This document shows, piece by piece, positions 30,629 through 43,869 of a DNA stretch of 64,000 nucleotides. The stretch's first letter is position 1. Every line of letters begins with the position of its first letter. Under the pieces are notes generated by a model that had not been told where the DNA came from, ran no database searches, and saw only the letters and a program-made list of their open reading frames with translations. Made by a program: the position numbers and the translations under genes. Location of the stretch: assembly GCA_044344255.1 (NCBI GenBank), contig JBIJDH010000019.1, positions 64,001 through 128,000 on the forward strand, in the 5' to 3' direction. Source of the DNA: Myxococcota bacterium. Its GTDB lineage: Bacteria; Myxococcota_A; UBA796; UBA2385.

Positions 30629-31720
30629 TCAGAGGCGGTGCGCCCGCTGGAGCTCGCCCACCTGCCGCGCGGTGGCGAGGAGCTCGGCCTCACCGCCCTC
30701 AAAGGTGGTCGGCAGGGCCTGGGCCTCCCCGCCGCGCCGGCCGAGCTGGCGCGCGAGCTTGAGCAGGAGCGCCCCCGCCTCTCGAGCGTGGCCGCTCTGC
30801 TGGTGGAGGCTGCCGAGCAGGCGGAGGTCGCGGTCCACCGAGCCCCGGTGCGCCGGGCTCTCGGGGCGCAGCGGGCCGAAGCGGCGACCGACGCTCCACA
30901 AGAGCGCCGCGTAGATCAGCCCGAGGTGGCCCATCAGGAGGTCGAAGGGCAGCGCGGTGGCCTCCACCGCCTCGGGGGACCGCGCCTGCTGGCCCTGGTG
31001 CCAGGCGTCGAAGTAGAGGCCCCGGCGGGTGTCGAGCTCGGCCATCGCCACGTCGAGCAGGGCGAGGTTGCCGGCCTCCTGGAGGTAGCCGTTCGTCCAG
31101 GGGCCAGCGCTCGGCAGCACGAGCACCGTCCCGCGGTGGAGGCGCCGGAGCTGCACCACCGGGTCGCCCTCGGGGCCGCGGAAGAGGCCACGGGCGCCCA
31201 CCGTCGGCACCACCTGGGCGCCGCCGCGGGGGTAGCGCAGCGGCGCGGTGAGCACCCAGGGGGAGCTGGGGTCCGGCGTCGCCTCGTGGACGGTCTCGGC
31301 GAAGGTGAGGGCCGCGCCGAGGCTGTCGGGGGGCTCGACCTCCTCGGCGGCCACGTCGAGCTCGAGGGCGAGGTGGAGGGGCGCCTCGAAGGCGCCGGGC
31401 AGGCCGCCGGAGGGCAGCAGCACGACGTCTCCGCCCACGAGCAGCCAACGGCGGAGCGCGTCGGCGTCGGTCGACGTGAAGGGGACGCGCAGGGGCTCGA
31501 TGAGCACCAGCACGCCCGGGGCCAAGGGGAGCTCGCTCAAGGGGCGCTCCCAGGCGACCGGGGCGTGCCCCCGCAGCTCGAGGTAGCGGAACAGGGCCCG
31601 GAGGCCGCCGGCTCGGCGGCTGGTCACGGTGGGCCCCTCGTCGGGGGGCGTCGAGAGCAAGCCGGCGACCGCGATCCCGATCAGGCTCGTGAGCGCGAGC
31701 ATCCAGGCGACCCGCTTCAC
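30629..31720 (-). CDS. DUF4350-like membrane protein
   Basis: N-terminal TM, G.RAL..YL motif, FD.WH, RRFGP; RDD/SpoIIM cluster context. Confidence 0.7.
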   Translation of the reverse strand: MKRVAWMLALTSLIGIAVAGLLSTPPDEGPTVTSRRAGGLRALFRYLELRGHAPVAWERPLSELPLAPGVLVLIEPLRVPFTSTDADALRRWLLVGGDVVLLPSGGLPGAFEAPLHLALELDVAAEEVEPPDSLGAALTFAETVHEATPDPSSPWVLTAPLRYPRGGAQVVPTVGARGLFRGPEGDPVVQLRRLHRGTVLVLPSAGPWTNGYLQEAGNLALLDVAMAELDTRRGLYFDAWHQGQQARSPEAVEATALPFDLLMGHLGLIYAALLWSVGRRFGPLRPESPAHRGSVDRDLRLLGSLHQQSGHAREAGALLLKLARQLGRRGGEAQALPTTFEGGEAELLATARQVGELQRAHRL

Positions 31721-32361
31721 GGCGACCTCAGCCCGCGCGCGACCTCGGCGAGGCCCCGCACCTCCGCGAGCTCCGGCGCGGCCTCCCCGTAGAGCAGCCG
31801 ATCGACCGAGCGCGCGAGGCCCTGGAGCGCCGTGAGGCCGTGCCAGTGGGGCTGGGCCTGCCGCACCGAGGCGACGAACTCCCGGTTGGTGACCTCGGGG
31901 CCGAAGCGCCCGAGGCCGCGCTGCTCGAGCGTGAGCGCCAGCCCCACCCAGAGCGCGCGGAGGGCGGCGCGCAGGTCTCCGCTGGCGAGGGCGCGGAGGA
32001 GGGCGTCGTCGGGGTCGGCGGGCAGGGCCAAGGGGACCACCGCGAGCGACGGCGGGGCCGCGGCGGCGGCCTGTCGGTGGCGGCGGCCCACGAGCCAGCG
32101 GCGGAGCTGCCAGAGGCCGAAGCCCAGCACGGCGAGGGCCAGCAGCGCGGCCACCCCCTCGACGAGCCAGAAGAGGAGCACCGGATCGATCCCCACCTCG
32201 GGCGCAGCGTCCCGGAGCCGCCCCCAGAGGTACCGGCCGAGGGTGGTGAGGCGCTCCGTGAGCCCGTCGTCCACCCGGCCTTCAATGTCCTCCTCGGCGA
32301 AGACCCGCTCCAGCAGGGCCGGATCGGGCAGGGCCCTCCCACCGCTCGGCTCAGCGGGCAT
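31717..32361 (-). CDS. DUF4129-like membrane protein
   Basis: TM segment, A.RAL, TNREF, LYG motifs. Confidence 0.7.
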   Translation of the reverse strand: MPAEPSGGRALPDPALLERVFAEEDIEGRVDDGLTERLTTLGRYLWGRLRDAAPEVGIDPVLLFWLVEGVAALLALAVLGFGLWQLRRWLVGRRHRQAAAAAPPSLAVVPLALPADPDDALLRALASGDLRAALRALWVGLALTLEQRGLGRFGPEVTNREFVASVRQAQPHWHGLTALQGLARSVDRLLYGEAAPELAEVRGLAEVARGLRSP

Positions 32362-32364
32362 GGC

Positions 32365-33270
32365 TCAGGCGCCTCGGGCTTCGAGACGCTGGTCGAGGGC
32401 CTGCCGGAGGTCTGTGCCCTCCATGAGGCGCCGCTGGTCCTGGTAGAAGGAGCCCCAGAGGATCGTGCCGTAGCTGCCGACGACGCCCATCCCGAGCCCG
32501 TTGAGCACGAGGGTGGGCATGACGGCCCACATCGGGGGTGAGATCGCGGCCGGGCTGGTGGCGAGGCCGGCGCTGATGCCCCGCAGCGTGTACCAGAGGG
32601 ACACGCAGAGGTTCGGCAGGCCCGTCACCGAGGTGATGGCGAGGCCGACGCCGAGCATGACGTGCAGCAGCAGCACGATGCGGAAGAGGGAGGACCCGCC
32701 GGCGCCGTTCGCCGGGCGGTAGTGGGCGACCCGCAAGCAGCGGCGGATGGCGTCGGGGGGCCACTCATCGCCAAAGACCGTGACCGCCGTGAGCGGGGCG
32801 AGCGCCATGATCGGGTAGAGGACCCCGAGCCCGCAGATACAGAGCGAGACGATGCCGATGGAGATGTAGATCAGCCAGCCCACCATGCTCGTCAGCCACC
32901 ACCGCAGGCGGAGCGCCGCCTTGTAGGCCTCGAAGAGGCTGAGGCTCCGCCCGGCCAGCAGCTCCCGGTAGGCCACCATCTTCGCGAGCTCCGCCCAGAT
33001 GGTGAGCACGACCGCGATCGCCCCCATCACGCCGAGCACGAGGTAGAAGCCCATCATCCGGCTGATGAGCCCCATCGGATCCCGGGACATCTCGGCGGGG
33101 TCGCCCATGATCCCCTTCATCATGCCCTGGTTGGCCACCTGGGCCACCACGCCGAAGAGCGTCGGCACGAGCGCGATGGGCACGAGGGTGCGCCAATGTT
33201 GAAGGAGGAAGCTGAGCGGCTGGTCGGCCAGCTCGGCGGTGGTGGTGGGGCTTGAGGTTTGGAGTCTCAC
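32365..33270 (-). CDS. Polytopic membrane protein, hypothetical
   Basis: About 6 TM segments, C-terminal Y.D.R...EG.DL typical of this cluster. Confidence 0.65.
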   Translation of the reverse strand: MRLQTSSPTTTAELADQPLSFLLQHWRTLVPIALVPTLFGVVAQVANQGMMKGIMGDPAEMSRDPMGLISRMMGFYLVLGVMGAIAVVLTIWAELAKMVAYRELLAGRSLSLFEAYKAALRLRWWLTSMVGWLIYISIGIVSLCICGLGVLYPIMALAPLTAVTVFGDEWPPDAIRRCLRVAHYRPANGAGGSSLFRIVLLLHVMLGVGLAITSVTGLPNLCVSLWYTLRGISAGLATSPAAISPPMWAVMPTLVLNGLGMGVVGSYGTILWGSFYQDQRRLMEGTDLRQALDQRLEARGA

Positions 33271-33283
33271 GGTCGGCGGCCCC

Positions 33284-34255
33284 TCAGGGTGTGCGCGCGC
33301 GGGGGGGGCCGACGCGCAGCGTGTAGAGCAGGAAGGTGGCCAGCAGGCCGATGCCCAGCGCCGCCTTGACCGGGGTGGGGATGTCCATCCGCGGCGAGAG
33401 GTTGCCCTCGAGGAGGCCGAGCAGCACGAACCAGGGCAGCGTGCCGGCCATCAGCAGGAAGGAGCGCCGCCCGCCCTCGGCGGCCGTGAGGCTGCGGGGG
33501 CGGTTCCCGGAGCCGACGAGGCCGCGAGTGAGCTCGAAGCCCGCCGCACCGGCGACGATGATCAGCGTGAGCTCGAGCGGCCCGTGCCCGCTGATGAAGG
33601 CGAAGACCCGGTCGAGCAGCTCATACCGCCAGCACAGCGCGAGCAGGCTCCCCACCATCGCCCCGTTGAAGAGCAGCAGCAGCGCCGTCCCCACGCCGAA
33701 CAGCCCGCCGAGGGCCCAGGCCTTCATGGCCACGCCCATGTTGTTCGTCGAGATGAAGCTCGAGAGGACCGAGCCGGGCATCGCCTCTCCGAGGTGGTCG
33801 GTCCAGATCGTGCCCCGCCGGAGGCCCGCCACCCCCTCCGCCCCGAAGAAGAGGTCGCCCACCGAGGGCACCGCCCCCGTGAGCACGAAGCCGAACAGCA
33901 GCCCGAACACGAAGAGCGAGAGGGCCGCCCGCACGGCGGGGAGCGAGCCGCGGAACACCTCCGGGTAGCCGGTGCGGAAGAAGCGGAGCAGGCGCGGACC
34001 CCAGGGGGGCTCCACCCCGGTGAACAGCCGGTGGCCCTGGAAGGAGAGGGCGCGCAGCCGGCGCTCGGCCTCTGTGCCCGGGAAGTGGGTGCGAGCCCAG
34101 GCGAAGTCGGAGAGCACCCGACGATGGGCCGCGGCGAGCTGCTCCACCTCGGCGAGGTCAAGGCGCCCGAGCCCGCCGGTCTTCACGCGGCCGAGCAGGC
34201 GCTCAGCGGCCTCCCAGTCGGGGCCGCCACGGCGCAAGAAGGCCGGGTAGTCCAC
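33284..34255 (-). CDS. Stage II sporulation protein M (SpoIIM/DUF95) family membrane protein
   Basis: TNN..VA, FNG.MVG, HGPLEL, EG.LSP. Confidence 0.85.
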   Translation of the reverse strand: MDYPAFLRRGGPDWEAAERLLGRVKTGGLGRLDLAEVEQLAAAHRRVLSDFAWARTHFPGTEAERRLRALSFQGHRLFTGVEPPWGPRLLRFFRTGYPEVFRGSLPAVRAALSLFVFGLLFGFVLTGAVPSVGDLFFGAEGVAGLRRGTIWTDHLGEAMPGSVLSSFISTNNMGVAMKAWALGGLFGVGTALLLLFNGAMVGSLLALCWRYELLDRVFAFISGHGPLELTLIIVAGAAGFELTRGLVGSGNRPRSLTAAEGGRRSFLLMAGTLPWFVLLGLLEGNLSPRMDIPTPVKAALGIGLLATFLLYTLRVGPPRARTP

Positions 34256-34258
34256 CGA

Positions 34259-34984
34259 TCAGCCCGTCACGGCGAAGGCGGCGCGAAGCGAGGGGAGCGG
34301 GCTCTTGAGGTCAGCCCCCTCGGGCAGGAAGCCTGGGTGATCACGCCGAATCCAGGTGAGCAGCTTGCGCGCGAGGTCGAGCTGCGCCGCCACCTCCATG
34401 CCGTCCACCCGCGCGAAGAAGGCCTCGACCAGCACGACGTCCTCGGCGCGGAAGCCCTCGGGGAAGCGGGTGGGCCGGGGGGCGGCGCGCGCCTCCCGCT
34501 CGACCACCACCACGGTGCCGGCGAAACGATCGCCGAGGCGCTGGTGGCGCTCGGTGAGCACCATCGAGGCCACCCCGATGGCGCCCCCGCCGGGGAAGAG
34601 GTCGAGCGGCCGCGCCAGGTTGCGGATGAGAGAGCCCACCACGCCGACGTCTCCGCCGTCAGCGGTCACCACCCGGAGGCCCACGAGGCGCTTGCCGGGG
34701 GTCTGCCCGTTCCAGGCCTGCTCGAAGGCGATGAACCAGCCCATCTCCAGGGTGAACCACCCGACGATGAGGAGGGCGACGAAGATGCCCCACTGGTCGG
34801 TGTCGGCGATGACAGAGCCCATCACGCCGAGGACCTGGAGCACGAGGATCAGCACCAGCGCGATGAGGAGCAGGCAGAGCCAGTCGGCGAGGTAAGCGAG
34901 GCTGCGGCTGCCGGCCGAGGCCAGGGGGAGCTCGAGGGGAACATCGAGGGCGCCGATGAAGCGCCCCTGGTCAGACTCGGGCAT
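34259..34984 (-). CDS. RDD family protein
   Basis: LAS.GSR.LAYL.D, GQTPGKR..GLRVV, RNL.R..D, QRLGD..AGT.VV. Confidence 0.9.
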   Translation of the reverse strand: MPESDQGRFIGALDVPLELPLASAGSRSLAYLADWLCLLLIALVLILVLQVLGVMGSVIADTDQWGIFVALLIVGWFTLEMGWFIAFEQAWNGQTPGKRLVGLRVVTADGGDVGVVGSLIRNLARPLDLFPGGGAIGVASMVLTERHQRLGDRFAGTVVVVEREARAAPRPTRFPEGFRAEDVVLVEAFFARVDGMEVAAQLDLARKLLTWIRRDHPGFLPEGADLKSPLPSLRAAFAVTG

Positions 34985-35091: not shown

Positions 35092-36189
35092 ATGCGCCCA
35101 CCCGCTGCCCTGCTCTCCGCCGCCGGGGCGCTCGCCCTCGCCGCCGCGCTGCTCCCCGCCTGCTCCGGCGACAAGGGCTCGACCGGCGCCGACAGCGCCG
35201 CCGAGGGGGACGCCGACACCGACGCCGACGCCGACGCAGACTCTGACACCGACATCGACGTCGACTGCGAGGCCCGCCTCGCCGAGGGCAAGTTCTTCCC
35301 GGACGGGGCCGTCTGGTTCGAGGACGTGAGCGGCGCACCCACCGACCCCACCTCCGAGGAGGTCATCACCTTCCTCCAGGGCTACGGCTGGGGCCTCGGC
35401 CGCCTCCAGATCGACTTCTCGATCGAGGTGCTCACCGCCGACGCCGACACCCCGAAGATGAGCTTCGACCCCAGCCCCGACTATTTCTACAGCCCGGACT
35501 GCGACCAGCAGGACATCCCCATCCCCGAGGGCGGCGCCCTCGAAGGTGAGGCGGGGTACTCCTGCTCCGACTACGAGAACAGCGACTGCCACCTGATCGT
35601 CGCCGACTGCGACGCCGGCCGCCTCTACGAGATGTGGAAGGCCGACATCGACGGCGCGAATTTCCAGGGGGGCTGCCTCGCCGTCTGGGACATGAACACG
35701 GTCTACGGGCCGGAGGGGCGCGGTGAACAGTGCACGAGCGCCGACGCCGCCGGCTACCCGATCGCGCAGCTCCTCTTCACCGCCGATGAGGTGGCGGCCG
35801 GCCACATCGACCACGCCATCCGCTTCATCCTGCCGAACGACGCCATCCGCGACAGCGGCTTCATCGCGCCGGCCACGCACGCCACCACCGCCGGGGACGA
35901 CCCGCCGAGCGGGGTCCTCTACGGCGCCCACCTTCGCCTGCGCGCCGACTACCCCGTCGACACGCTGCCGAACGAGGCCTCCAAGGTGGTGGCCCGGGCG
36001 CTGCAGACCTACGGGATGTACCTCGCCGACGGCGGCAACGTAGCGCTCACGGCCCGCAGCGACCGCTCCACCACCGCGAAGTGGGCCGACCTCATGGAGT
36101 CGCGTGACCTCGAGGACATCGAGCCCGCCGACTTCGAGCTCCTCGAGATGGGGCCCGAGATCCCGCTCACCTTTGACTGCGCGCGCTGA
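35092..36189 (+). CDS. Lipoprotein of unknown function with DADTD linker
   Basis: LPAC lipobox; RLYE, TSADAAG.PI, IDHAIRF, ALQTYGM motifs; TACACT and GGAGG upstream. Confidence 0.7.
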   Translation: MRPPAALLSAAGALALAAALLPACSGDKGSTGADSAAEGDADTDADADADSDTDIDVDCEARLAEGKFFPDGAVWFEDVSGAPTDPTSEEVITFLQGYGWGLGRLQIDFSIEVLTADADTPKMSFDPSPDYFYSPDCDQQDIPIPEGGALEGEAGYSCSDYENSDCHLIVADCDAGRLYEMWKADIDGANFQGGCLAVWDMNTVYGPEGRGEQCTSADAAGYPIAQLLFTADEVAAGHIDHAIRFILPNDAIRDSGFIAPATHATTAGDDPPSGVLYGAHLRLRADYPVDTLPNEASKVVARALQTYGMYLADGGNVALTARSDRSTTAKWADLMESRDLEDIEPADFELLEMGPEIPLTFDCAR

Positions 36190-36231: not shown

Positions 36232-37161
36232 TCAGCCCGTCACAGCCGCCCAGCCCCGCTCGAGCTCCGCAGGGTCGATCCCCCGCCCGATCACGACCAG
36301 CGCGCTCTCGAGCGGGGGCTCCATCGTACCGGGGCCGAGCTCGAGCCACTGATAGACGCCCTGCGCCACCACCGCCGTGCTGTGGCCAGGGCAGCGGAAG
36401 ATGCCCTTGAGGCGGAGCAGCTCCCAGCCGCGGCGGGAGGCGATGAACTGGAGGTACATCTTGAGCTTCGCGAGCTCGACCGGCCCGCCGCGGAGGCTCT
36501 TGGTCATCACGCCTGCGGAGTGTGTGACCACCTCGGGGATCTGCCAGCGCGCCGGGTCCGCGCCGCCGATTCGCAGGAGAGGCGCCACGTCGACCGCCGC
36601 CCGCTCCGAGCGGGAGAGGGTGGCGAGCGGAGAGACGGCCCGCACCGCGGCCTCGGCCCCCTCGATGTCGTCGGCCTGATCGACGTGGTTGAGCAGCACG
36701 CGGTCGGCGGTGGCGAGCTGGGCGGCCACCTCGGGGTGCTGGTCGAGCTGCGCCACCACCCGCCCGGCGTGGGCCACCGCCACCACCCCGTCCACCCGCG
36801 TCTGAGCGGCGAGGGTGGGGTCGAGCAGGAAGGTCTGCAAGAGCGGGCCGGGCGTCGCCAGGCCGGAGGTCTCGATCACCACCCGCTCGAAGCGCAGGGG
36901 CCTCCACCAACGGGAGCGTCTCTGTAACAAATCGAGGGCGGTGACCCGCAGGTCCTCCCGCACCTCGCAGCAGACGCAGCCGTTGCGGAGCTCGACCACG
37001 CGGTCCGAGGCGCCGACGACGAGCCGCCCGTCAATGCCGAGCGCGCCGAACTCGTTGACGATCACGGCGGTCGGCGGCGTCGCGGGGTCGCTCAGCAGCC
37101 GGTTGAGCAGGGTGGTCTTGCCGGCGCCGAGGAAGCCCGTGAGGAGCGTGACCGGGACCAT
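36232..37161 (-). CDS. CobW/COG0523 GTP-binding metallochaperone
   Basis: GFLGAGKTT, NEFG, NGCVCC, ETSGLA.P, RLKG. Confidence 0.9.
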   Translation of the reverse strand: MVPVTLLTGFLGAGKTTLLNRLLSDPATPPTAVIVNEFGALGIDGRLVVGASDRVVELRNGCVCCEVREDLRVTALDLLQRRSRWWRPLRFERVVIETSGLATPGPLLQTFLLDPTLAAQTRVDGVVAVAHAGRVVAQLDQHPEVAAQLATADRVLLNHVDQADDIEGAEAAVRAVSPLATLSRSERAAVDVAPLLRIGGADPARWQIPEVVTHSAGVMTKSLRGGPVELAKLKMYLQFIASRRGWELLRLKGIFRCPGHSTAVVAQGVYQWLELGPGTMEPPLESALVVIGRGIDPAELERGWAAVTG

Positions 37162-37691
37162 CAGTCCCCGAGGTAGCCGAGCGCCTTGAGCGCCTCGATC
37201 TCCGCAGGGTCCCCCGTCTTGGCGAGCTCGTCGATGGCCGCCTGGAAGGAGGGATCATCCGGGTACTTCTTCTTCCCGGCGTCGAGCACGCTCACCGCGC
37301 CAGGGCCGTCCCCGGCTGCGCGCAGCTTGTCGGCGAGGGCGCGGTACAGGGCGGGGTTGATCTGCGTCGGGTAGGCGCCGGTGAGCCGCTCGAGGCCGGC
37401 CACCACCTCCGCCCCCTTGCCGCCCTCGGCGAGGCCCTGGAGGCGCAGCGACTCGAAGCGCCAGGCCTTGGCCGGCTCCTTCGAGATGGCCTCGACCTTG
37501 AGGGCCTCATCGGCCTTGGCCACCGCGCCCGCGTAGTCCTTGGCCTGCAGCGCGGCCTCCACGTCCGCCTGCATCGCGGCGGCGTCGGGACCGCTCTCAC
37601 AGCCCGGGAGCGCGGCCAAAGAGAGGGCGAAGGCGAAGGCGAAGAAGAGGGCGCGTGGGCCGCGGAGGGCGCCCGCGAGGGAGGAGGGCAT
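37161..37691 (-). CDS. TPR-like lipoprotein with C-terminal LKALGY tail
   Basis: LPGC lipobox, helical repeats, ends IEALKALGYLGD; stop overlaps the CobW ATG. Confidence 0.7.
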   Translation of the reverse strand: MPSSLAGALRGPRALFFAFAFALSLAALPGCESGPDAAAMQADVEAALQAKDYAGAVAKADEALKVEAISKEPAKAWRFESLRLQGLAEGGKGAEVVAGLERLTGAYPTQINPALYRALADKLRAAGDGPGAVSVLDAGKKKYPDDPSFQAAIDELAKTGDPAEIEALKALGYLGD

Positions 37692-37817
37692 GAACGGGCT
37701 CCGAGGGGATGATCCAAAGGGACGAGCGGCAGGACGAGAGGCAGGACGAGCAGGCGCGCCTCACGGGTCTCTGCGAGGTAGCTCGTCTCCTGCCTGACGA
37801 CTATATGGCCGGCACGC

Positions 37818-40049
37818 ATGAGACCCTCGACCCCTCGCCCTTCGTCCCTCCTCCTGCGCTCAAACGTGCGGTTGGCTGTGCAGCTCTGCCTGTTCAGCCT
37901 GCTGCTCTGGCCCAGCGCGGCCTGGGCTTACATCGGCCCCGGCGCCGGCTTCGCCTTCGCAGGCTCCCTGGCCGTGATGCTGGCGGCCTTCGCCCTCGCG
38001 GTGGGCACGATCCTGCTCTGGCCGATCACCTTCGTGATCCGCACGATCCGGGTGGGCAACCCCTTCAAGCACGCCCTGGCGAAGCGGGTGATCATCATCG
38101 GCCTCGACGGGATGGACCCTGGCATCACCTCCCGCTTCATGGCCGAGGGGCGCCTGCCGAACCTGAAGAAGCTCGCCGATCAGGGGGTCTTCCGCCCGCT
38201 CAACACCTCGAACCCCTCGATGTCGCCGGTCGCCTGGTCGAGCTTCGCCACCGGCGTGGACCCCTCCCGCCACGGCATCTACGACTTCCTCACGCGTGAC
38301 CCCTGCACCTACGCGCCGATGCTGTCCTCCACCGACATCCAGAACGCCGAGAAGGTCTGGAACATCGGCAAGTACATCATCCCGCTCGGAAAGCCCAAGA
38401 TCAAGCTCCTCCAGAAGTCCCAGGCCTTCTGGAAGCTCCTCGGCGAGCGGCACATCCCCTCGATCATCCAGCGCGTGCCGATCACGTTTCCGCCGGTGCC
38501 CTTCCGCGGCCTGCTGCTGTCGGGCATGTGCGTGCCCGACCTGCGGGGGAGCCAGGGCACCTTCAGCTTCTTCTCCACGGCCAGCGCGGACGGCAAGGCC
38601 GCCTTCACCGGCGGGGAGCAGACCGTCCTCCGCCGGAAGGGCGACGTCATCCGCTCCCGCATCGTCGGCCCCGACAACGGCATGGTCAAGGACGGCGGGC
38701 GGATGACCCTGCCCTTCACGATCACGGTGTCCGAGGCCGCGGGTAAGGTCCACGTCGCGATCGACGGCGGCGAGGCCTTTGACCTCCCGCTCAAGGCCTA
38801 CTCCGCCTGGATCCACCTCACCTTCGAGGCCGGCCTCGGCGTGAAGGTGGCGGGTATCGCCCGCTTCTACCTGAACTCGATCTCGCCCGACGTCAACCTC
38901 TACATGACGCCGATCCACATCGACCCGGAGTCTCCGGCGATGCCGATCAGCCACCCTGAGGTCTACGCGGTCTACCTCGCCAAGAAGTTCGGCCCCTACG
39001 CCACCCTCGGCCTCGCCGAAGACACCTGGGCGCTGAACGAGCGGGTCATCGACGAGGGCGCGTTCTTTGACCAGGCGATGGCCTTCTGCGACGAGCGCGA
39101 GAAGATGCTCTTTGACGCCATCGAGCACACCCGCACGGGCCTCGTCACGACCGTCTTCGACACGACCGATCGTGTCCAGCACATGTTCTATCGGTACCTG
39201 GACCCCACCCACCCTGCGAACCGCGACAAGGAGGCCACCGCCTACGCCGACGCCATCCAGCGTGTCTACACACACATGGACGGCATCATCGGCAAGGTGG
39301 CCGAGAAGCTGGGCGACGACGCCGTGCTGATGGTGATGAGCGACCACGGCTTCACGAACTTCCGCCGCGGCGTGAACATCAACTCCTGGCTGCGCGACAA
39401 CGGCTACCTCTTCCTCAAGGACGGCAAGACCACCTCGGGCGAGTGGTTCGAGGACGTCGACTGGTCGCGCACCCGCGCCTTCTCGCTCGGGCTCACCGGG
39501 CTCTTCATCAACCGCAAGGGGCGCGAGCAGTCCGGCATCGTCGAGGAGGGGGAGGCCTACCGCGCCCTCTGTGACGAGCTCGCCGCCGGCCTCGAGGCGC
39601 TGATCGACCCCGAGACGGGCGGCCGCGCCATCCGCCACGTCGAGGCCGCTTACAAGTGCTTCGACGGGCCCTACCGCCTCGACTCCCCCGATCTGCTCAT
39701 CGGCTACGAGGGCGGCTACCGGCACTCCTGGGAGTGCGCGACCGGCTCCTGCACCCCCGAGGTCTTCCGGGACAACACCAAGAGCTGGTCGGGCGACCAC
39801 TGTGTCGATCCCTCGATCGTGCCCGGTGTCTTCTTCTGCAATCGTACGATCCTGGACGAGACGCCGCACATCATGGACATCCCCTTCTCCGTCCTGTCGC
39901 TCTTCGGCGCCAAGCCGCCCGGCTACATGCAGGGGAAGATGCTGTTCGCCAAGGCCGGCGAGCAGGCCGGCGTGCGGGGCCCCCTCGACCCCCGCACCCT
40001 CTCCCAGTCGGGCTCGGCGCCCGGCGCGCTCGTCTCGAAGGAGCGCTGA
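37818..40049 (+). CDS. Alkaline phosphatase superfamily / nucleotide pyrophosphatase-phosphodiesterase-like protein 1, with N-terminal AYIGPG motif and TM anchor
   Basis: IIGLDGMD, SPVAWSSFATG..P..HGIYDF, DRVQH, MSDHGF, WSGDH. Confidence 0.85.
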   Translation: MRPSTPRPSSLLLRSNVRLAVQLCLFSLLLWPSAAWAYIGPGAGFAFAGSLAVMLAAFALAVGTILLWPITFVIRTIRVGNPFKHALAKRVIIIGLDGMDPGITSRFMAEGRLPNLKKLADQGVFRPLNTSNPSMSPVAWSSFATGVDPSRHGIYDFLTRDPCTYAPMLSSTDIQNAEKVWNIGKYIIPLGKPKIKLLQKSQAFWKLLGERHIPSIIQRVPITFPPVPFRGLLLSGMCVPDLRGSQGTFSFFSTASADGKAAFTGGEQTVLRRKGDVIRSRIVGPDNGMVKDGGRMTLPFTITVSEAAGKVHVAIDGGEAFDLPLKAYSAWIHLTFEAGLGVKVAGIARFYLNSISPDVNLYMTPIHIDPESPAMPISHPEVYAVYLAKKFGPYATLGLAEDTWALNERVIDEGAFFDQAMAFCDEREKMLFDAIEHTRTGLVTTVFDTTDRVQHMFYRYLDPTHPANRDKEATAYADAIQRVYTHMDGIIGKVAEKLGDDAVLMVMSDHGFTNFRRGVNINSWLRDNGYLFLKDGKTTSGEWFEDVDWSRTRAFSLGLTGLFINRKGREQSGIVEEGEAYRALCDELAAGLEALIDPETGGRAIRHVEAAYKCFDGPYRLDSPDLLIGYEGGYRHSWECATGSCTPEVFRDNTKSWSGDHCVDPSIVPGVFFCNRTILDETPHIMDIPFSVLSLFGAKPPGYMQGKMLFAKAGEQAGVRGPLDPRTLSQSGSAPGALVSKER

Positions 40050-40050
40050 G

Positions 40051-42132
40051 ATGCGGCCCGGCGCCCCTCCGCACGCCCCCCGCTCGCCCTGGCGACGGGT
40101 CGGCCTCTCCGCCGCCGCCACGCTCGGCTTCGGCCTCGGCCTCCTGCCCGCCTGCGACACGCCCCCGCCCGCCGGGCCCGGCGTCTTCGTGCTCGGCGTG
40201 GACGGCATGGACCCCGTCATCCTCCGCCGCCTGATCGACGCCGGCCGGATGCCGAACCTCGCCAAGCTGGCGGCCAACGGGAGCTTCCAGGAGCTCGGCA
40301 CCTCGAACCCGCCCCAGAGCCCCGTCGCCTGGTCAAACTTCGTCACCGGCGAGGATCCAGGCGGGCACGGCATCTACGACTTCGTCCACCGCGACCCCAA
40401 GACCTACCTCCCCACCTCCTCGGCCACCCCGGCCCCCGGCGAGCCGCCCTCCTCCATCGACGTCTTCGGCTACTACCTGCCGATCGGCGGCGATGACGTG
40501 GTGAACAACCGCTCCGGCACCCCCTGGTGGGACTCCCTCCACGGCGCCGGGGTCGACGTCGAGGTCTACCGCATCCCCGGGAACTACCCGCCCACCCCCT
40601 CCGAGGCCCGCACCCTCTCCGGGATGGGCACCGTCGACATGCGCGGCGGCTACGGCATCTACTCCTGGTTCACCGATCAGGCGGTGACCTCGAAGGAGGC
40701 GCTCAAGGGGGACATCCAGCTCGTCACCGTCGAGGACTACGACCTCGACGGCAAGGGCGACACCGTGAAGGGCAAGCTCAAGGGGGCCCCCGACATCTTC
40801 CACCTGCCCCCCGGCCAGATCCCGACAGAGAGCGACTACCTCACCGCCGCCTTCACCGTGTCGATCGACCCCACCGAGGACGTCGCCTTCATCCGCTTCG
40901 GCTCCCCGGGCGACGGCGGCGCCGAGGCGCTGCTGCGCGAGGGCGAGTGGACCGACTGGATGAACGTCAGCTTTGACGCCCTGCCCGCCGGCGCCCTCCC
41001 CCTCGCCGGTGCGGTGCGCTTCTACGCCAAGGAGCTGCGCCCCGCCTTCAAGCTCTACGCCTCCCCGGTCAACATGTCGGCCGAGGAGCCGCCCCAGCCC
41101 ATCTCCACCCCCGACGAGTTCGCCCCCGACCTCGCCCTCGCGGTGGGCGGCGGCTTCTACACCCAGGGGATGCCCGAGGAGACCAACGCCCTCCGCGACG
41201 GCACCTTCACCGACGACGACTACGAGCGGCAGGTCCACCTCGTGATGGAGGACGCCGAGCGCATGCTCAGCGTGGCCCTCGACCGCTTCCAGCCGGGCGA
41301 CGCCACCTTCTTCTACCTCTCCGACATCGACCTCCAGTGCCACATGCTCTGGCGCCACGGCGACCCGAAGCAGCCCGGCGGCCTCGCCCACCCCGCCTAC
41401 GAGCCCGAGTCCGCCCAGGCCCACGCCGACGACATCGACGGCTACTACGAGAACGTCGACCGCCTCGTCGGCAAGATCGTGAGCGGGCTGCCCGCCGACT
41501 CCCTCCTCCTCGTGATGAGCGACCACGGCTTCCAGCCTTTCACCCGCAAGGTCCACCTGAACAGTTGGCTCCGGGACAACGGCTACCTGACCCTCAAGGA
41601 CGGCAAGCGGGAGGGCCACATCGCGCACGGTGACGTGGACTGGTCGAAGACCCGCGCCTACGCCCTCGGCTTCAACGCGATCTACCTGAACCTCCAGGGT
41701 CGCGAGCGGGACGGCATCGTCTCCCCCGCGGAGGCCGGCAAGACCATGGCCGAGCTCCAGGCCGCCCTCACCGCCTTCACCGACCCCAAGGACGGCGCCA
41801 AGGTGGTGCTCCGGGTGGACAGAGGCGCCGACATCTACCACGGCGCCCGTGTCTCCGAGTCACCTGACCTCGTCGTCGGCTACGACCGCGGCTACGGGCA
41901 CTCCGACGAGTCCACGCTCGGCGAGCTGCCCGAGGCCGAGCTCGAGGACAACACCTCGAAGTGGTCGGGCAACCACCTCATGGCCCCCGAGGTCGTGCCC
42001 GGCGTGCTCCTCTCGAGCCGCCCCCTGCAAGGCAGCGGCTACGACCTCACCGACGTCACCGCCACGCTCTACGCCTGGTACGGCCTCGCCCCGCACGCCG
42101 GGATGATCGGCCAGCCCATCCTGACCCCCTAA
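40051..42132 (+). CDS. Alkaline phosphatase superfamily / phosphodiesterase-like protein 2, lipoprotein
   Basis: LPAC lipobox; LGVDGMD, SPVAWSNFVTG..P..HGIYDF, DLQCH, MSDHGF, WSGNH; paralog of the upstream gene. Confidence 0.85.
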   Translation: MRPGAPPHAPRSPWRRVGLSAAATLGFGLGLLPACDTPPPAGPGVFVLGVDGMDPVILRRLIDAGRMPNLAKLAANGSFQELGTSNPPQSPVAWSNFVTGEDPGGHGIYDFVHRDPKTYLPTSSATPAPGEPPSSIDVFGYYLPIGGDDVVNNRSGTPWWDSLHGAGVDVEVYRIPGNYPPTPSEARTLSGMGTVDMRGGYGIYSWFTDQAVTSKEALKGDIQLVTVEDYDLDGKGDTVKGKLKGAPDIFHLPPGQIPTESDYLTAAFTVSIDPTEDVAFIRFGSPGDGGAEALLREGEWTDWMNVSFDALPAGALPLAGAVRFYAKELRPAFKLYASPVNMSAEEPPQPISTPDEFAPDLALAVGGGFYTQGMPEETNALRDGTFTDDDYERQVHLVMEDAERMLSVALDRFQPGDATFFYLSDIDLQCHMLWRHGDPKQPGGLAHPAYEPESAQAHADDIDGYYENVDRLVGKIVSGLPADSLLLVMSDHGFQPFTRKVHLNSWLRDNGYLTLKDGKREGHIAHGDVDWSKTRAYALGFNAIYLNLQGRERDGIVSPAEAGKTMAELQAALTAFTDPKDGAKVVLRVDRGADIYHGARVSESPDLVVGYDRGYGHSDESTLGELPEAELEDNTSKWSGNHLMAPEVVPGVLLSSRPLQGSGYDLTDVTATLYAWYGLAPHAGMIGQPILTP

Positions 42133-42167
42133 GCACCGCACCCCACGTACCGCCCTCAGGAGCCCCC

Positions 42168-42371
42168 ATGTTCGGCTTCGGCAAGAACGTCAGCGTCAAG
42201 ATCGACAAGGACCTCCACGCCCGCGTGGCCAAGGTGGCCGACGTGGCCGGCTACGCCACCGTGGAGGAGTTCATCCAGCACATCCTCGAGAAGGAGATGC
42301 TGCACTTCGAGGACACCAAGAACGACGCCGACATCCGCGCGAAGCTCAAGGGCCTCGGCTACATCTCCTAA
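42168..42371 (+). CDS. Small ribbon-helix-helix (CopG-like) protein with LKGLGY tail, 67 aa
   Basis: AGGAG RBS; VSVKIDKDLHARVAKVA..AGYATVEEFIQHILEKE; ends IRAKLKGLGYIS. Confidence 0.75.
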   Translation: MFGFGKNVSVKIDKDLHARVAKVADVAGYATVEEFIQHILEKEMLHFEDTKNDADIRAKLKGLGYIS

Positions 42372-42413
42372 GCCACCGCTCCGGCGCAGCGCACCACCGA
42401 TGGGCACCGTCCA

Positions 42414-43232
42414 GTGAACACGTTCAACCGAATCGCGAGCGCCATCTTCGACGTGCTGCTCGCGCCGCTGGGTCACACGCGGCCGTGGTTTGACCTGCTC
42501 CTCTGGCCGGTGCTGGCGGGCATCGTCGCCCTGCTCGTCTACAAGGCGATCAGCAACCAGGCGGGCATCACGCGGGCCAAGAACTTCATCCAGGTGCACC
42601 TCCTCGAGGTGGTGCTCTTCAAGGATGACCTTCGGGTCGTGCTCCCCGCGACGATGAAGGCCCTCGGCTACAACGTGCTGTACCTCGGCAACAACATCCT
42701 CCCGATGGTGGTGATGTTCGCGCCGATGACGGCGATCCTCGTCCAGCTCGTCTCGAACTACGGCTACGCCCCGCTGCCCGTCGGCGAGACCACGCTGCTG
42801 GTGGTCGAGCTCGACCGGGACAGCGCCGTGAAGCCGGCAGACGTCTCGCTCGTGCTCCCGCCGGGCGTCTCCCTCGACGCGCCCCCGGTGCGCACCGCCG
42901 ACGGCGAGGTCGCCTGGCGCCTCCGCCTCGACGCCCCGGGCGACCACGTGCTCCAGCTCCACGCCGGCGCCGAGACCGAGGAGAAGCTCCTCCAGGTGGG
43001 CGGCGAGGCGCGTAAGGTCTCCCCCCTACGCACGAAGTCGTGGGAGGCGCTGCTCTACCCAGCCGAGCCCGTCCCCGCCGCCGACTCCTTCGTCGCCAGC
43101 ATCCGCATCGACCGCCAAGACCAGGACCTCGGCCTCTTCCCCGCGGGAGAGAGCGGGATCCTGGGCTGGTTCTTCGGCTTCTCCCTCCTCGCCGGCCTCC
43201 TGCTCAAGGACCGCTTCGGCGTCACCCTCTAG
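42414..43232 (+). CDS. Membrane protein, DUF106/Oxa1-superfamily-like N-terminal half plus beta-rich domain
   Basis: TM1-YK..SNQ-helical hairpin-TM2 (P.....P), soluble domain, C-terminal TM; family call is tentative. Confidence 0.55.
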   Translation: MNTFNRIASAIFDVLLAPLGHTRPWFDLLLWPVLAGIVALLVYKAISNQAGITRAKNFIQVHLLEVVLFKDDLRVVLPATMKALGYNVLYLGNNILPMVVMFAPMTAILVQLVSNYGYAPLPVGETTLLVVELDRDSAVKPADVSLVLPPGVSLDAPPVRTADGEVAWRLRLDAPGDHVLQLHAGAETEEKLLQVGGEARKVSPLRTKSWEALLYPAEPVPAADSFVASIRIDRQDQDLGLFPAGESGILGWFFGFSLLAGLLLKDRFGVTL

Positions 43233-43239
43233 GGGTCCC

Positions 43240-43869
43240 ATGTCTGGCTTCCTCTCTTCTCTGTTCGGCGGCGGCAAGGCCAAGTACGGCGAGCCCCTCA
43301 TCATCGTCTCGGGGCTCCCCCGCTCGGGCACCTCGATGATGATGAAGATGCTGGAGGCGGGCGGTCTGCCGATCATGACCGACTCCATCCGCACCGCCGA
43401 CATCGACAACCCGAAGGGCTACTACGAGTACGAGCGGGTCAAGGACCTCGAGAAGGAGACGGACAAGTCCTACATCAAGGAGGGCCGAGGCAAGGTGCTC
43501 AAGGTCATCTCCTTCCTCTTGAAGGACCTGCCCGACGAGAACGCCTACAAGATCATCTTCATGCGGCGAGACCTCGGTGAGGTCATCGCGTCGCAGAACA
43601 AGATGATCAAGCACAGAGGCGAGAAGGACGACAGCGACGACAAGATGATGATCGACGCCTACATGAACCACCTCGCGGCGGTTCGGATCATGGTGCGCAA
43701 GCGGCCTAATTTCGAGATGGTGGAGATCCGCTACGACACCACCGTTCAGGATCCCAAGGAGGCCGCCCGCCAGGTCAACGTCTTCTTAGGCGGCAAGCTC
43801 AATGAGGCGGCGATGGGCCAGATGGTCGACGCCGACCTCTACCGCAACAAGAAGGGCGCCACCGTCTGA
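43240..43869 (+). CDS. PAPS-dependent sulfotransferase family protein
   Basis: IIVSGLPRSGTSMMM (5'-PSB loop), NPKGYYE, IFMRRD...VIAS (3'-PB motif). Confidence 0.85.
   Translation: MSGFLSSLFGGGKAKYGEPLIIVSGLPRSGTSMMMKMLEAGGLPIMTDSIRTADIDNPKGYYEYERVKDLEKETDKSYIKEGRGKVLKVISFLLKDLPDENAYKIIFMRRDLGEVIASQNKMIKHRGEKDDSDDKMMIDAYMNHLAAVRIMVRKRPNFEMVEIRYDTTVQDPKEAARQVNVFLGGKLNEAAMGQMVDADLYRNKKGATV

Follow-up and report, generated by a model that had tools for sequence, protein, structure and literature searches.

The genes described here lie on a 64,000-nucleotide stretch of Myxococcota bacterium DNA (assembly GCA_044344255.1, contig JBIJDH010000019.1, positions 64,001 to 128,000 of the forward strand), hereafter called the window. 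Seven open reading frames (ORFs) are present between window positions 36232 and 43869 (Table 1). Five of them, on the plus strand, encode two paralogous enzymes of the alkaline phosphatase (AP) superfamily (AlkP1 and AlkP2), a 67-residue protein resembling ribbon-helix-helix (RHH) proteins, a membrane protein and a sulfotransferase of the type that uses 3′-phosphoadenosine 5′-phosphosulfate (PAPS). A lipoprotein with tetratricopeptide repeat (TPR)-like sequence and a CobW-like GTPase are read in the opposite direction. The gaps from AlkP1 through the sulfotransferase are 1, 35, 42 and 7 nt, in agreement with the tight, divergent operon described in the initial annotation. We show below that this set of genes, referred to as the module, is real and widely conserved, undescribed in the literature covered, and has a strong genomic tie to activated sulfate.

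Table 1. Features of the module and their positions in the window
Feature	Position	Strand	Remarks
CobW-like COG0523 G3E GTPase	36232-37161	-	PF02492, PF07683; GCVCC motif
TPR-like lipoprotein, LPGC lipobox, C-terminal EIEALKALGYLGD (Tyr173)	37161-37691	-	TPR_14 just above cut-off, TPR_19 just below
Promoter-like element, (R)GTAGC-N16-GACTATA	37776-37805	+	12 nt 5′ of the AlkP1 ATG
AlkP1, 743 aa; signal peptide, Y38-IGPGAG tip, membrane segment and two-zinc domain, Ser136	37818-40049	+	PF01663
YIGPGAG tip and membrane segment, residues 38-74	37929-38039	+	Candidate trans-membrane tyrosine shuttle
AlkP2, 693 aa; exported lipoprotein paralog (LPAC), Ser90	40051-42132	+	PF01663
67-aa RHH-like protein, predicted cytoplasmic, C-terminal IRAKLKGLGYIS (Tyr65)	42168-42371	+	Candidate sulfate carrier
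Oxa1-superfamily (DUF106/EMC3-like) three-TM (transmembrane) protein, inserted Ig-like domain	42414-43232	+	Profile match to MJ0480
PAPS-type sulfotransferase, cytoplasmic	43240-43869	+	PF13469, PF00685; 5′-phosphosulfate-binding (5′-PSB) PRSGTS; 3′-phosphate-binding (3′-PB) R110/S118

Fifty-four genome loci were found via the membrane protein, in Myxococcota-like, Planctomycetota, Acidobacteriota, Binatia and Planctomycetes-Verrucomicrobia-Chlamydiae (PVC) records. The nearest named loci are mostly labelled as Myxococcota or Deltaproteobacteria metagenome-assembled genomes; seven records titled Klebsiella, Enterobacterales or Spirochaetales (L002, L010, L014, L016, L017, L025 and L030) look mislabelled among Myxococcota-like sequences. 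The RHH-like gene is present in 53 of the 54 loci, AlkP2 in 49, AlkP1 in 48, the sulfotransferase in 39, the TPR lipoprotein in 33 and CobW in 18. The core, consisting of AlkP1, AlkP2, the RHH-like protein and the membrane protein, thus recurs in several phyla, and the linkage of these genes is far beyond chance. The co-conservation anticipated in the initial annotation stands for the RHH-like protein and both AlkPs with the membrane protein; the sulfotransferase proved replaceable, and neither CobW nor the TPR lipoprotein belongs to the core. CobW was rejected as a core part on its count. The protein has a G3E GTPase domain, a CobW_C domain and the CxCC motif of COG0523, does not reach the equivalog cut-offs for CobW, ZigA or PRK11537, and is best seen as an accessory that may deliver zinc to the two-zinc AlkPs as a chaperone. 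No plasmid record covered 80% of AlkP1.

A phylogenetic profile over 201 genomes of the same phylum gave a consistent picture. The membrane protein was found in 17 genomes, all of which have at least two long AlkPs, while seven other genomes with one long AlkP each lack it. The 16 genomes with the top sulfotransferase matches all fall within these 17, and the seventeenth has the best match to c7, an AlkP-fold enzyme whose gene is elsewhere located between sat (ATP sulfurylase) and cysC (APS kinase; APS, adenosine 5′-phosphosulfate); here it lies directly before the AlkP1 start.

AlkP1 and AlkP2 are 35% identical over 648 columns. Both carry the hallmarks of the NPP branch (PF01663), a Ser/Thr nucleophile and ligands for two zinc ions (D, D-H; DxxxH, H), and an NPP is their best PDB match. 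The Ser of their SPVAW motif aligns with the Thr nucleophile of Xanthomonas NPP, giving D97/S136/D451/H455/D509/H510/H661 as ligands and nucleophile in AlkP1 and D51/S90/D427/H431/D491/H492/H642 in AlkP2. The six ligands and the Ser are invariant in 40/40 orthologues of each paralog, and the formylglycine motif of S1 sulfatases (CxPxR, or C/S-x-P-x-R) is absent from both, in line with what had been read from the window alone. Compared with Xanthomonas NPP (PDB 2GSN/7N1S), the two enzymes share the fold, the zinc ligands and a hydroxyl nucleophile at the equivalent place; they differ in having Ser for Thr, an insertion of about 250 residues, opposite targeting of the two paralogs and a PAPS-linked operon. 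The combination typical of LtaS, EptA and OpgB, a multi-TM anchor and an extracytoplasmic Thr-nucleophile domain, was not found, AlkP1 having one anchor and AlkP2 being a lipoprotein; nor did the AlkPs match the NCBIfam families for these enzymes.

Topology was read throughout from signals, charges and hydrophobicity. In AlkP1 the net charge is 0 before the anchor and +4 to +10 after it (40/40 sequences), so that the positive-inside rule predicts a cytoplasmic catalytic domain. AlkP2 has an export-type signal in 44/44 sequences with a readable N-terminus, 35 with a lipobox and nine without the Cys, one of these twin-Arg (seven rows were too short for signal scoring). The existence of several independent signal types argues that export itself is selected. 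The AlkP1 domain is accordingly predicted to lie inside, and the AlkP2 domain outside, in every complete orthologue, which supports the proposal that the two enzymes work on opposite faces of the membrane rather than on the same side.

The AlkP1 tip, Y[IV]GPGAG, occurs in 44 of 50 AlkP1-class rows, the six misses being contig-cut or AlkP2-type. A hydrophobic signal of the AxA type precedes it in 40 of these 44 rows, while one case is borderline and three have no signal (L018, L042 and L052); two of these three seem to start with Met-Phe-Ala right before the Tyr. Tip residues Y1, G3-A9 and P32 are invariant in 40/40 AlkP1, and 33-37 uncharged residues follow from the Tyr onward, with no charge before position 34-38 in 40/40. 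An invariant Tyr in a short membrane-tied peptide is the hallmark of the tyrosine acyl shuttles, among which DltX is counted, and the tip shares it in 40/40 sequences. A search for the tip pattern in the 201 genomes gave 28 matches in 26 genomes: 11 AlkP1 tips, 10 stand-alone microproteins and seven chance matches. The microproteins consist of a signal, YxDPG and a TM helix. Eight of the ten lie before a conserved NoeA-like gene of about 460 aa (loci L153-L155 and L157-L160 are among the microprotein loci), and in three of the eight loci retrieved with long flanks a gene for a membrane protein with a sulfatase domain comes next. One microprotein matches a small ORF before noeA in Sinorhizobium.

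The membrane protein belongs to a large family, which comprises 2,361 clusters at 50% identity. Its predicted model (predicted local distance difference test, pLDDT, 87) starts with an N-terminal helix, followed by TM1, a helical hairpin and TM2; an Ig-like sandwich separates these from TM3. The helices stand in the order expected for an Oxa1-type three-TM core. With a 121-member profile, the sole significant protein in the PDB was archaeal MJ0480 (5C8J; E 5.7e-8), aligned over TM1-TM2 and, weakly, TM3. PF01956 was the commonest Pfam match, in 18 of the 121 members (E up to 1, best 1.4e-6). The MJ0480/Oxa1 match was not found with the window protein alone or a 30-row profile, and fold searches with the model returned only Ig domains and helical hairpins of a generic kind (best Z 8.2, over 44 residues), a result that speaks neither for nor against Oxa1. 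By profile homology over TM1-hairpin-TM2 and TM3, the protein can thus be placed in the Oxa1 superfamily (DUF106/EMC3/TMCO1), which lends substance to its earlier description as insertase-like. The amphipathic N-terminal helix, TM1, hairpin, TM2 and C-terminal TM3 all align with MJ0480. Unlike these relatives, the module protein comes from bacteria, carries an Ig-like domain that separates TM2 from TM3, and occurs in this operon only, which sets it apart from a general insertase.

The sulfotransferase has the hallmarks of PAPS-dependent enzymes, a 5′-PSB loop (PRSGTS) and the 3′-PB residues R110 and S118, the latter two invariant in 35/35. Its best PDB profile matches are TPST1/2 (E 4e-6), mainly via the PAPS loop, followed by SULT1 enzymes. 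The source genome has cysD and cysNC outside the window locus. Of the 54 loci, five that have no sulfotransferase carry c7, and in four of these an RHH-sat-c7-cysC block lies directly before AlkP1. A sulfotransferase or c7 is therefore present in 44/54 loci, and the claimed linkage to the sulfotransferase is conserved once PAPS-gene substitutes are included (16 of the 17 genomes of the profile, and one with c7). In metagenomes, where 581 loci were anchored on AlkP1 and the best 80 (many of them short) were examined, the sulfotransferase occurs in 25, PAPS-synthesis genes in 20 and c7 in 11. Sulfotransferase and c7 never occur together in these 80 (Fisher p 0.014, a value overstated by kinship). 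We rejected the idea that c7 is solely a sulfotransferase replacement, which is true within loci and false at the genome level; an unlinked c7 orthologue lies in the source genome at G000:C18:29895-30713 (L097:7896-8711). Weaker sulfotransferase homologues in module-less genomes (13 of 23 neighbourhoods examined, gene called in 12) never stood beside the module; three sulfotransferase homologues in genomes of this kind are fused to other domains (L120:6480-8597, L121:6236-8359 and L123:5647-7314).

The RHH-like protein and the TPR lipoprotein share a C-terminal LGY tail. It was found in 58/58 RHH proteins and in 32/33 TPR lipoproteins, the single miss being contig-cut. The RHH-like protein has no Pfam RHH match; it matches the NikR RHH domain at E 0.023 and Atlas clusters named CopG/RHH at 0.93-0.94. 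The tail is absent from AlkP1 (0/125) and from the AlkP2 of the window, and only 3/89 AlkP2 have a fused one, in each case L[DP]YI, with the Gly changed and the Tyr kept. Many shorter AlkP relatives, unlike AlkP1 and AlkP2, carry the LGY tail, and in two full loci that have no TPR gene, AlkP1 is immediately preceded by a gene for an AlkP-fold enzyme with an LGY tail. APS kinase (CysC) is also LGY-tailed in six metagenome loci. Each compartment is thus predicted to hold a tailed partner, the TPR lipoprotein being a predicted periplasmic LGY carrier and the RHH-like protein a candidate cytoplasmic sulfate carrier. In two loci (L033:1986-2222 and L173:7124-7345) the sat/cysC block is headed by an RHH-LGY protein of another type, 74-79 aa in length, whose N-terminal strand is longer and better conserved; it may be the true regulator. 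It should be noted that the source genome has 48 sulfatase-fold ORFs, about 24 of them with the LGY motif and only two with the canonical formylglycine motif. All 16 LGY-tailed enzymes that were aligned use Thr as the nucleophile, and in each a low-complexity linker leads to the invariant Gly-Tyr; in 22 of 25 checked, membrane helices or a lipobox precede the catalytic domain. The tailed sulfatase-fold enzymes of this genome are possible clients of the module.

In a quick tree AlkP1 and AlkP2 resolve as two distinct, supported clades that each span phyla. The lone long AlkP of other genomes is exported and falls in a third clade, so we rejected it as an AlkP2 orthologue. In six of seven genomes a multi-TM LGY enzyme is encoded no more than three genes away from it, often in capsule or extracellular polysaccharide (EPS) clusters, and six loci (L095, L096 and L100-L103) have third-clade long SPVAW lipoproteins beside multi-TM LGY sulfatase-fold genes. 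Such pairs may represent a second form of the system. In L173, L195, L199 and L202, additional genes for short cytoplasmic AlkPs without a tail stand next to cysC or AlkP1.

The module is probably a two-sided, PAPS-linked envelope system. We propose that it acts as an outward sulfuryl relay on alternating Tyr and Ser, a reading to which we give slightly less than an even chance and each chemical step of which we infer. The sulfotransferase, or c7 where it is absent, would sulfate Tyr65 in the LGY tail of the RHH-like protein from PAPS. Tail-less AlkP1 would take the sulfate on Ser136 and hand it to Tyr38 of the YIGPGAG tip, which the Oxa1-family protein would allow, short and uncharged as it is, to cross or dip into the membrane. 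Ser90 of AlkP2 would then collect the sulfate and load exported LGY tails, namely those of the TPR lipoprotein (Tyr173) and of some LGY-tailed Thr-nucleophile sulfatase-fold enzymes. The loaded proteins would in turn sulfate envelope glycans, lipids or proteins. We find it rather doubtful that the whole is a protein-only sulfuryl wire, in which the insertase-family protein would swing a sulfotyrosine N-terminal tip between sister enzymes and the LGY tails would be sulfotyrosine carrier arms. Of the sulfation relay put forward initially, the opposite placement, the PAPS linkage and the insertase homology are retained. CobW proved accessory, and the many LGY-tailed enzymes, the likeliest clients of the module, do not require it.

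Several observations weigh against the relay. Phosphoryl transfer is the chemistry for which two-zinc sites of the NPP type are known, and sulfate transfer from Ser to Tyr should be uphill. Ten of the 54 loci have neither sulfotransferase nor c7; eight of these are contig-cut, and two are complete. A sulfotransferase or PAPS gene is nearby in only 10/18 long-flank metagenome loci, and c7 also occurs unlinked, in the source genome and in 16/201 genomes, mostly without the module. The CysC tail has Phe for Tyr, L[KN]F[IV], with the acidic helix kept, in L033, L035, L038, L039, L168 and L169, and docking therefore fits these tails better than carrying. Within the same order, the median number of LGY matches is 10.5 in the six module genomes and 8 in the 22 without (p 0.69), and three genomes with 22-26 LGY matches (G161, G057 and G107) gave no long AlkP or RHH match with the queries used. 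We consequently rejected the module as a general charger of all LGY enzymes. Lastly, the likeness between YxDPG and the AlkP1 tip extends over seven columns (hhalign probability 1.8%), and for this reason we treat the YxDPG tip as an analogy only.

The LGY tails could instead be docking or regulatory tags, with the AlkPs acting, at one face of the membrane or the other, as NPP-type hydrolases or nucleotidyl transferases whose substrate would be PAPS, APS, PAP (3′-phosphoadenosine 5′-phosphate) or a similar nucleotide, and the Oxa1-like protein merely inserting the N-out anchor of AlkP1. The full NPP two-zinc set, the NPP as best PDB match, the Phe-ended CysC tails and the LGY tail on RHH regulators that head sat operons are all consistent with this, as are the three AlkP1 without a signal peptide, which would be expected of an insertase client. 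A housekeeping role has also been guessed for the NPP gene of an archaeal copG-sat-DHH-NPP-cysC cluster (PMC8268124). Such nucleotide housekeeping would, however, leave the exported paralog unexplained, PAPS being cytoplasmic, together with the invariant Tyr of the outer tip and the strict co-occurrence of the membrane protein with the two paralogs, and we consider it unlikely.

Alternatively, the carrier might be a lipid or small molecule: the sulfotransferase would sulfate a lipid or phenol, the Oxa1-like protein would pass it across, and AlkP2 would use it as a donor in the manner of LtaS/EptA, the Tyr motifs being structural. AP-superfamily transferases commonly take lipid head-group donors, many LGY enzymes have LtaS/EptA-like multi-TM anchors, and the sulfotransferase resembles TPST mainly in its PAPS loop, with the SULT1 phenol enzymes close behind. 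This scheme nevertheless gives no clear role to a catalytically intact cytoplasmic AlkP1 or to a tailed partner in each compartment, and the neighbourhoods contain no conserved lipid-synthesis gene; we think it quite improbable. A relay running inward, in which AlkP2 would capture sulfate from environmental sulfate esters and the sulfotransferase, working backwards, would regenerate PAPS from PAP, has a symmetric architecture and a motif common to both paralogs on its side. PAPS-type enzymes can run backwards with aryl sulfates, and some long-flank loci have no nearby PAPS-synthesis gene. We judge this direction very unlikely, since loci without the sulfotransferase have in the same operon the genes sat and cysC, whose products form PAPS out of free sulfate, the source genome has cysD/cysNC elsewhere, and a related lone paralog occurs in capsule-export clusters.

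In the literature covered, which did not extend to subscription papers and supplements, we found no description of the module. Its parts each come from known superfamilies, and no described system has the same composition. Agl30 (VNG1056C) and Agl31 (VNG1057C) of Halobacterium salinarum are AP-superfamily proteins needed for N-glycan sulfation, one membrane-bound and one soluble; what they share with the module is the superfamily only. According to that report they are closest to sulfatases, in contrast to the long NPP-like paralogs of the module, each acts on its own sugar, the donor was not identified, PAPS going unmentioned in the text, and no insertase, RHH carrier or canonical sulfotransferase is described (PMC11980604). 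In MBOAT-SGNH and AT3-SGNH systems such as OatA and PatA/PatB, the latter with a tyrosine peptide that shuttles acetyl from PatA to PatB, an activated cytoplasmic donor serves an outside Ser-nucleophile enzyme via an invariant Tyr in a short membrane-tied peptide; these systems move acyl groups through an MBOAT/AT3 channel, whereas the module has the AlkP pair and an Oxa1-family protein, and sulfate is proposed (PMC12148441). MBOAT, AT3 or SGNH partners are absent from the conserved core of the module neighbourhoods. With no MBOAT/AT3 protein the module is not a member of the tyrosine-shuttle systems, though it would be alike if the model holds.

Two gene clusters offer further parallels. In Pyrococcus yayanosii, copG-sat-DHH-NPP-cysC (pych_17520-17560) groups CopG/RHH, ATP sulfurylase, NPP-family and APS kinase genes without a known sulfate-using enzyme, and mirrors the RHH-sat-c7-cysC block beside the module in Planctomycetota. 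The role of its NPP is only guessed there, and the cluster differs in being cytoplasmic only, with no exported paralog and no membrane protein (PMC8268124). The NoeA/NoeB cassette of Sinorhizobium meliloti likewise has a single TM helix that bears a Tyr-x-(D/G)-P-G tip exposed by signal cleavage, and next to it a group-activating enzyme of the cytoplasm and an AP-fold enzyme of the membrane; it has kinase-methyltransferase rather than PAPS genes, and the tip is a separate protein with a seven-residue likeness (PMC9758233). The NoeB-like anchor gave no match to the membrane-protein profile.

If true, the relay would explain how bacteria sulfate their surface despite a donor made inside the cell, and it bears on how prokaryotes sulfate outside the cytoplasm and on the donor of AP-fold sulfotransferases such as Agl30/Agl31. 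It would provide a sulfate counterpart to the tyrosine acyl shuttles and a non-insertase job for an Oxa1-family protein, and it names the residues involved (Tyr65, Ser136, Tyr38, Ser90 and Tyr173). A large class of annotated "sulfatases" would then be builders rather than degraders, which would alter genome-based readings of sulfur cycling and suggest tools for periplasmic sulfation. Should the sulfuryl wire be correct, many of the "sulfatase-like" proteins with a Thr nucleophile found in Myxococcota, Planctomycetota and Acidobacteriota (the source genome has 24) would be periplasmic sulfotransferases, and the Tyr-tip microproteins a general group-shuttle device. Even with the mechanism wrong, an uncharacterised family of 2,361 clusters (50% identity) is tied to PAPS genes.

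The promoter-like element has no sigma-70 consensus match. It occurs with the same spacing in 14 of 43 relatives examined by eye, all of them close ones, and this conservation supports the ATG at 37818 as the AlkP1 start. In the divergent gap, at 37720-37750, two CAGGACGAG copies and a partial third were seen; these repeats are not conserved in the relatives examined. Two freshwater metatranscriptome runs contain short contigs near-identical to stretches of six of the seven genes, though such contigs are not proof of transcription, DNA carry-over being possible. In L025/L111 the RHH gene is separated from AlkP2 by an inserted gene for a CHASE4-GGDEF-EAL protein. Convergent with CobW lies a gene for a 365-aa lipoprotein with DADAD repeats (35092-36189), which has no Pfam match and adjoins the module in 1/54 loci. 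Beyond it, on the minus strand at 30629-34984, is a five-gene membrane operon that we take to resemble an RDD/SpoIIM-type cluster.

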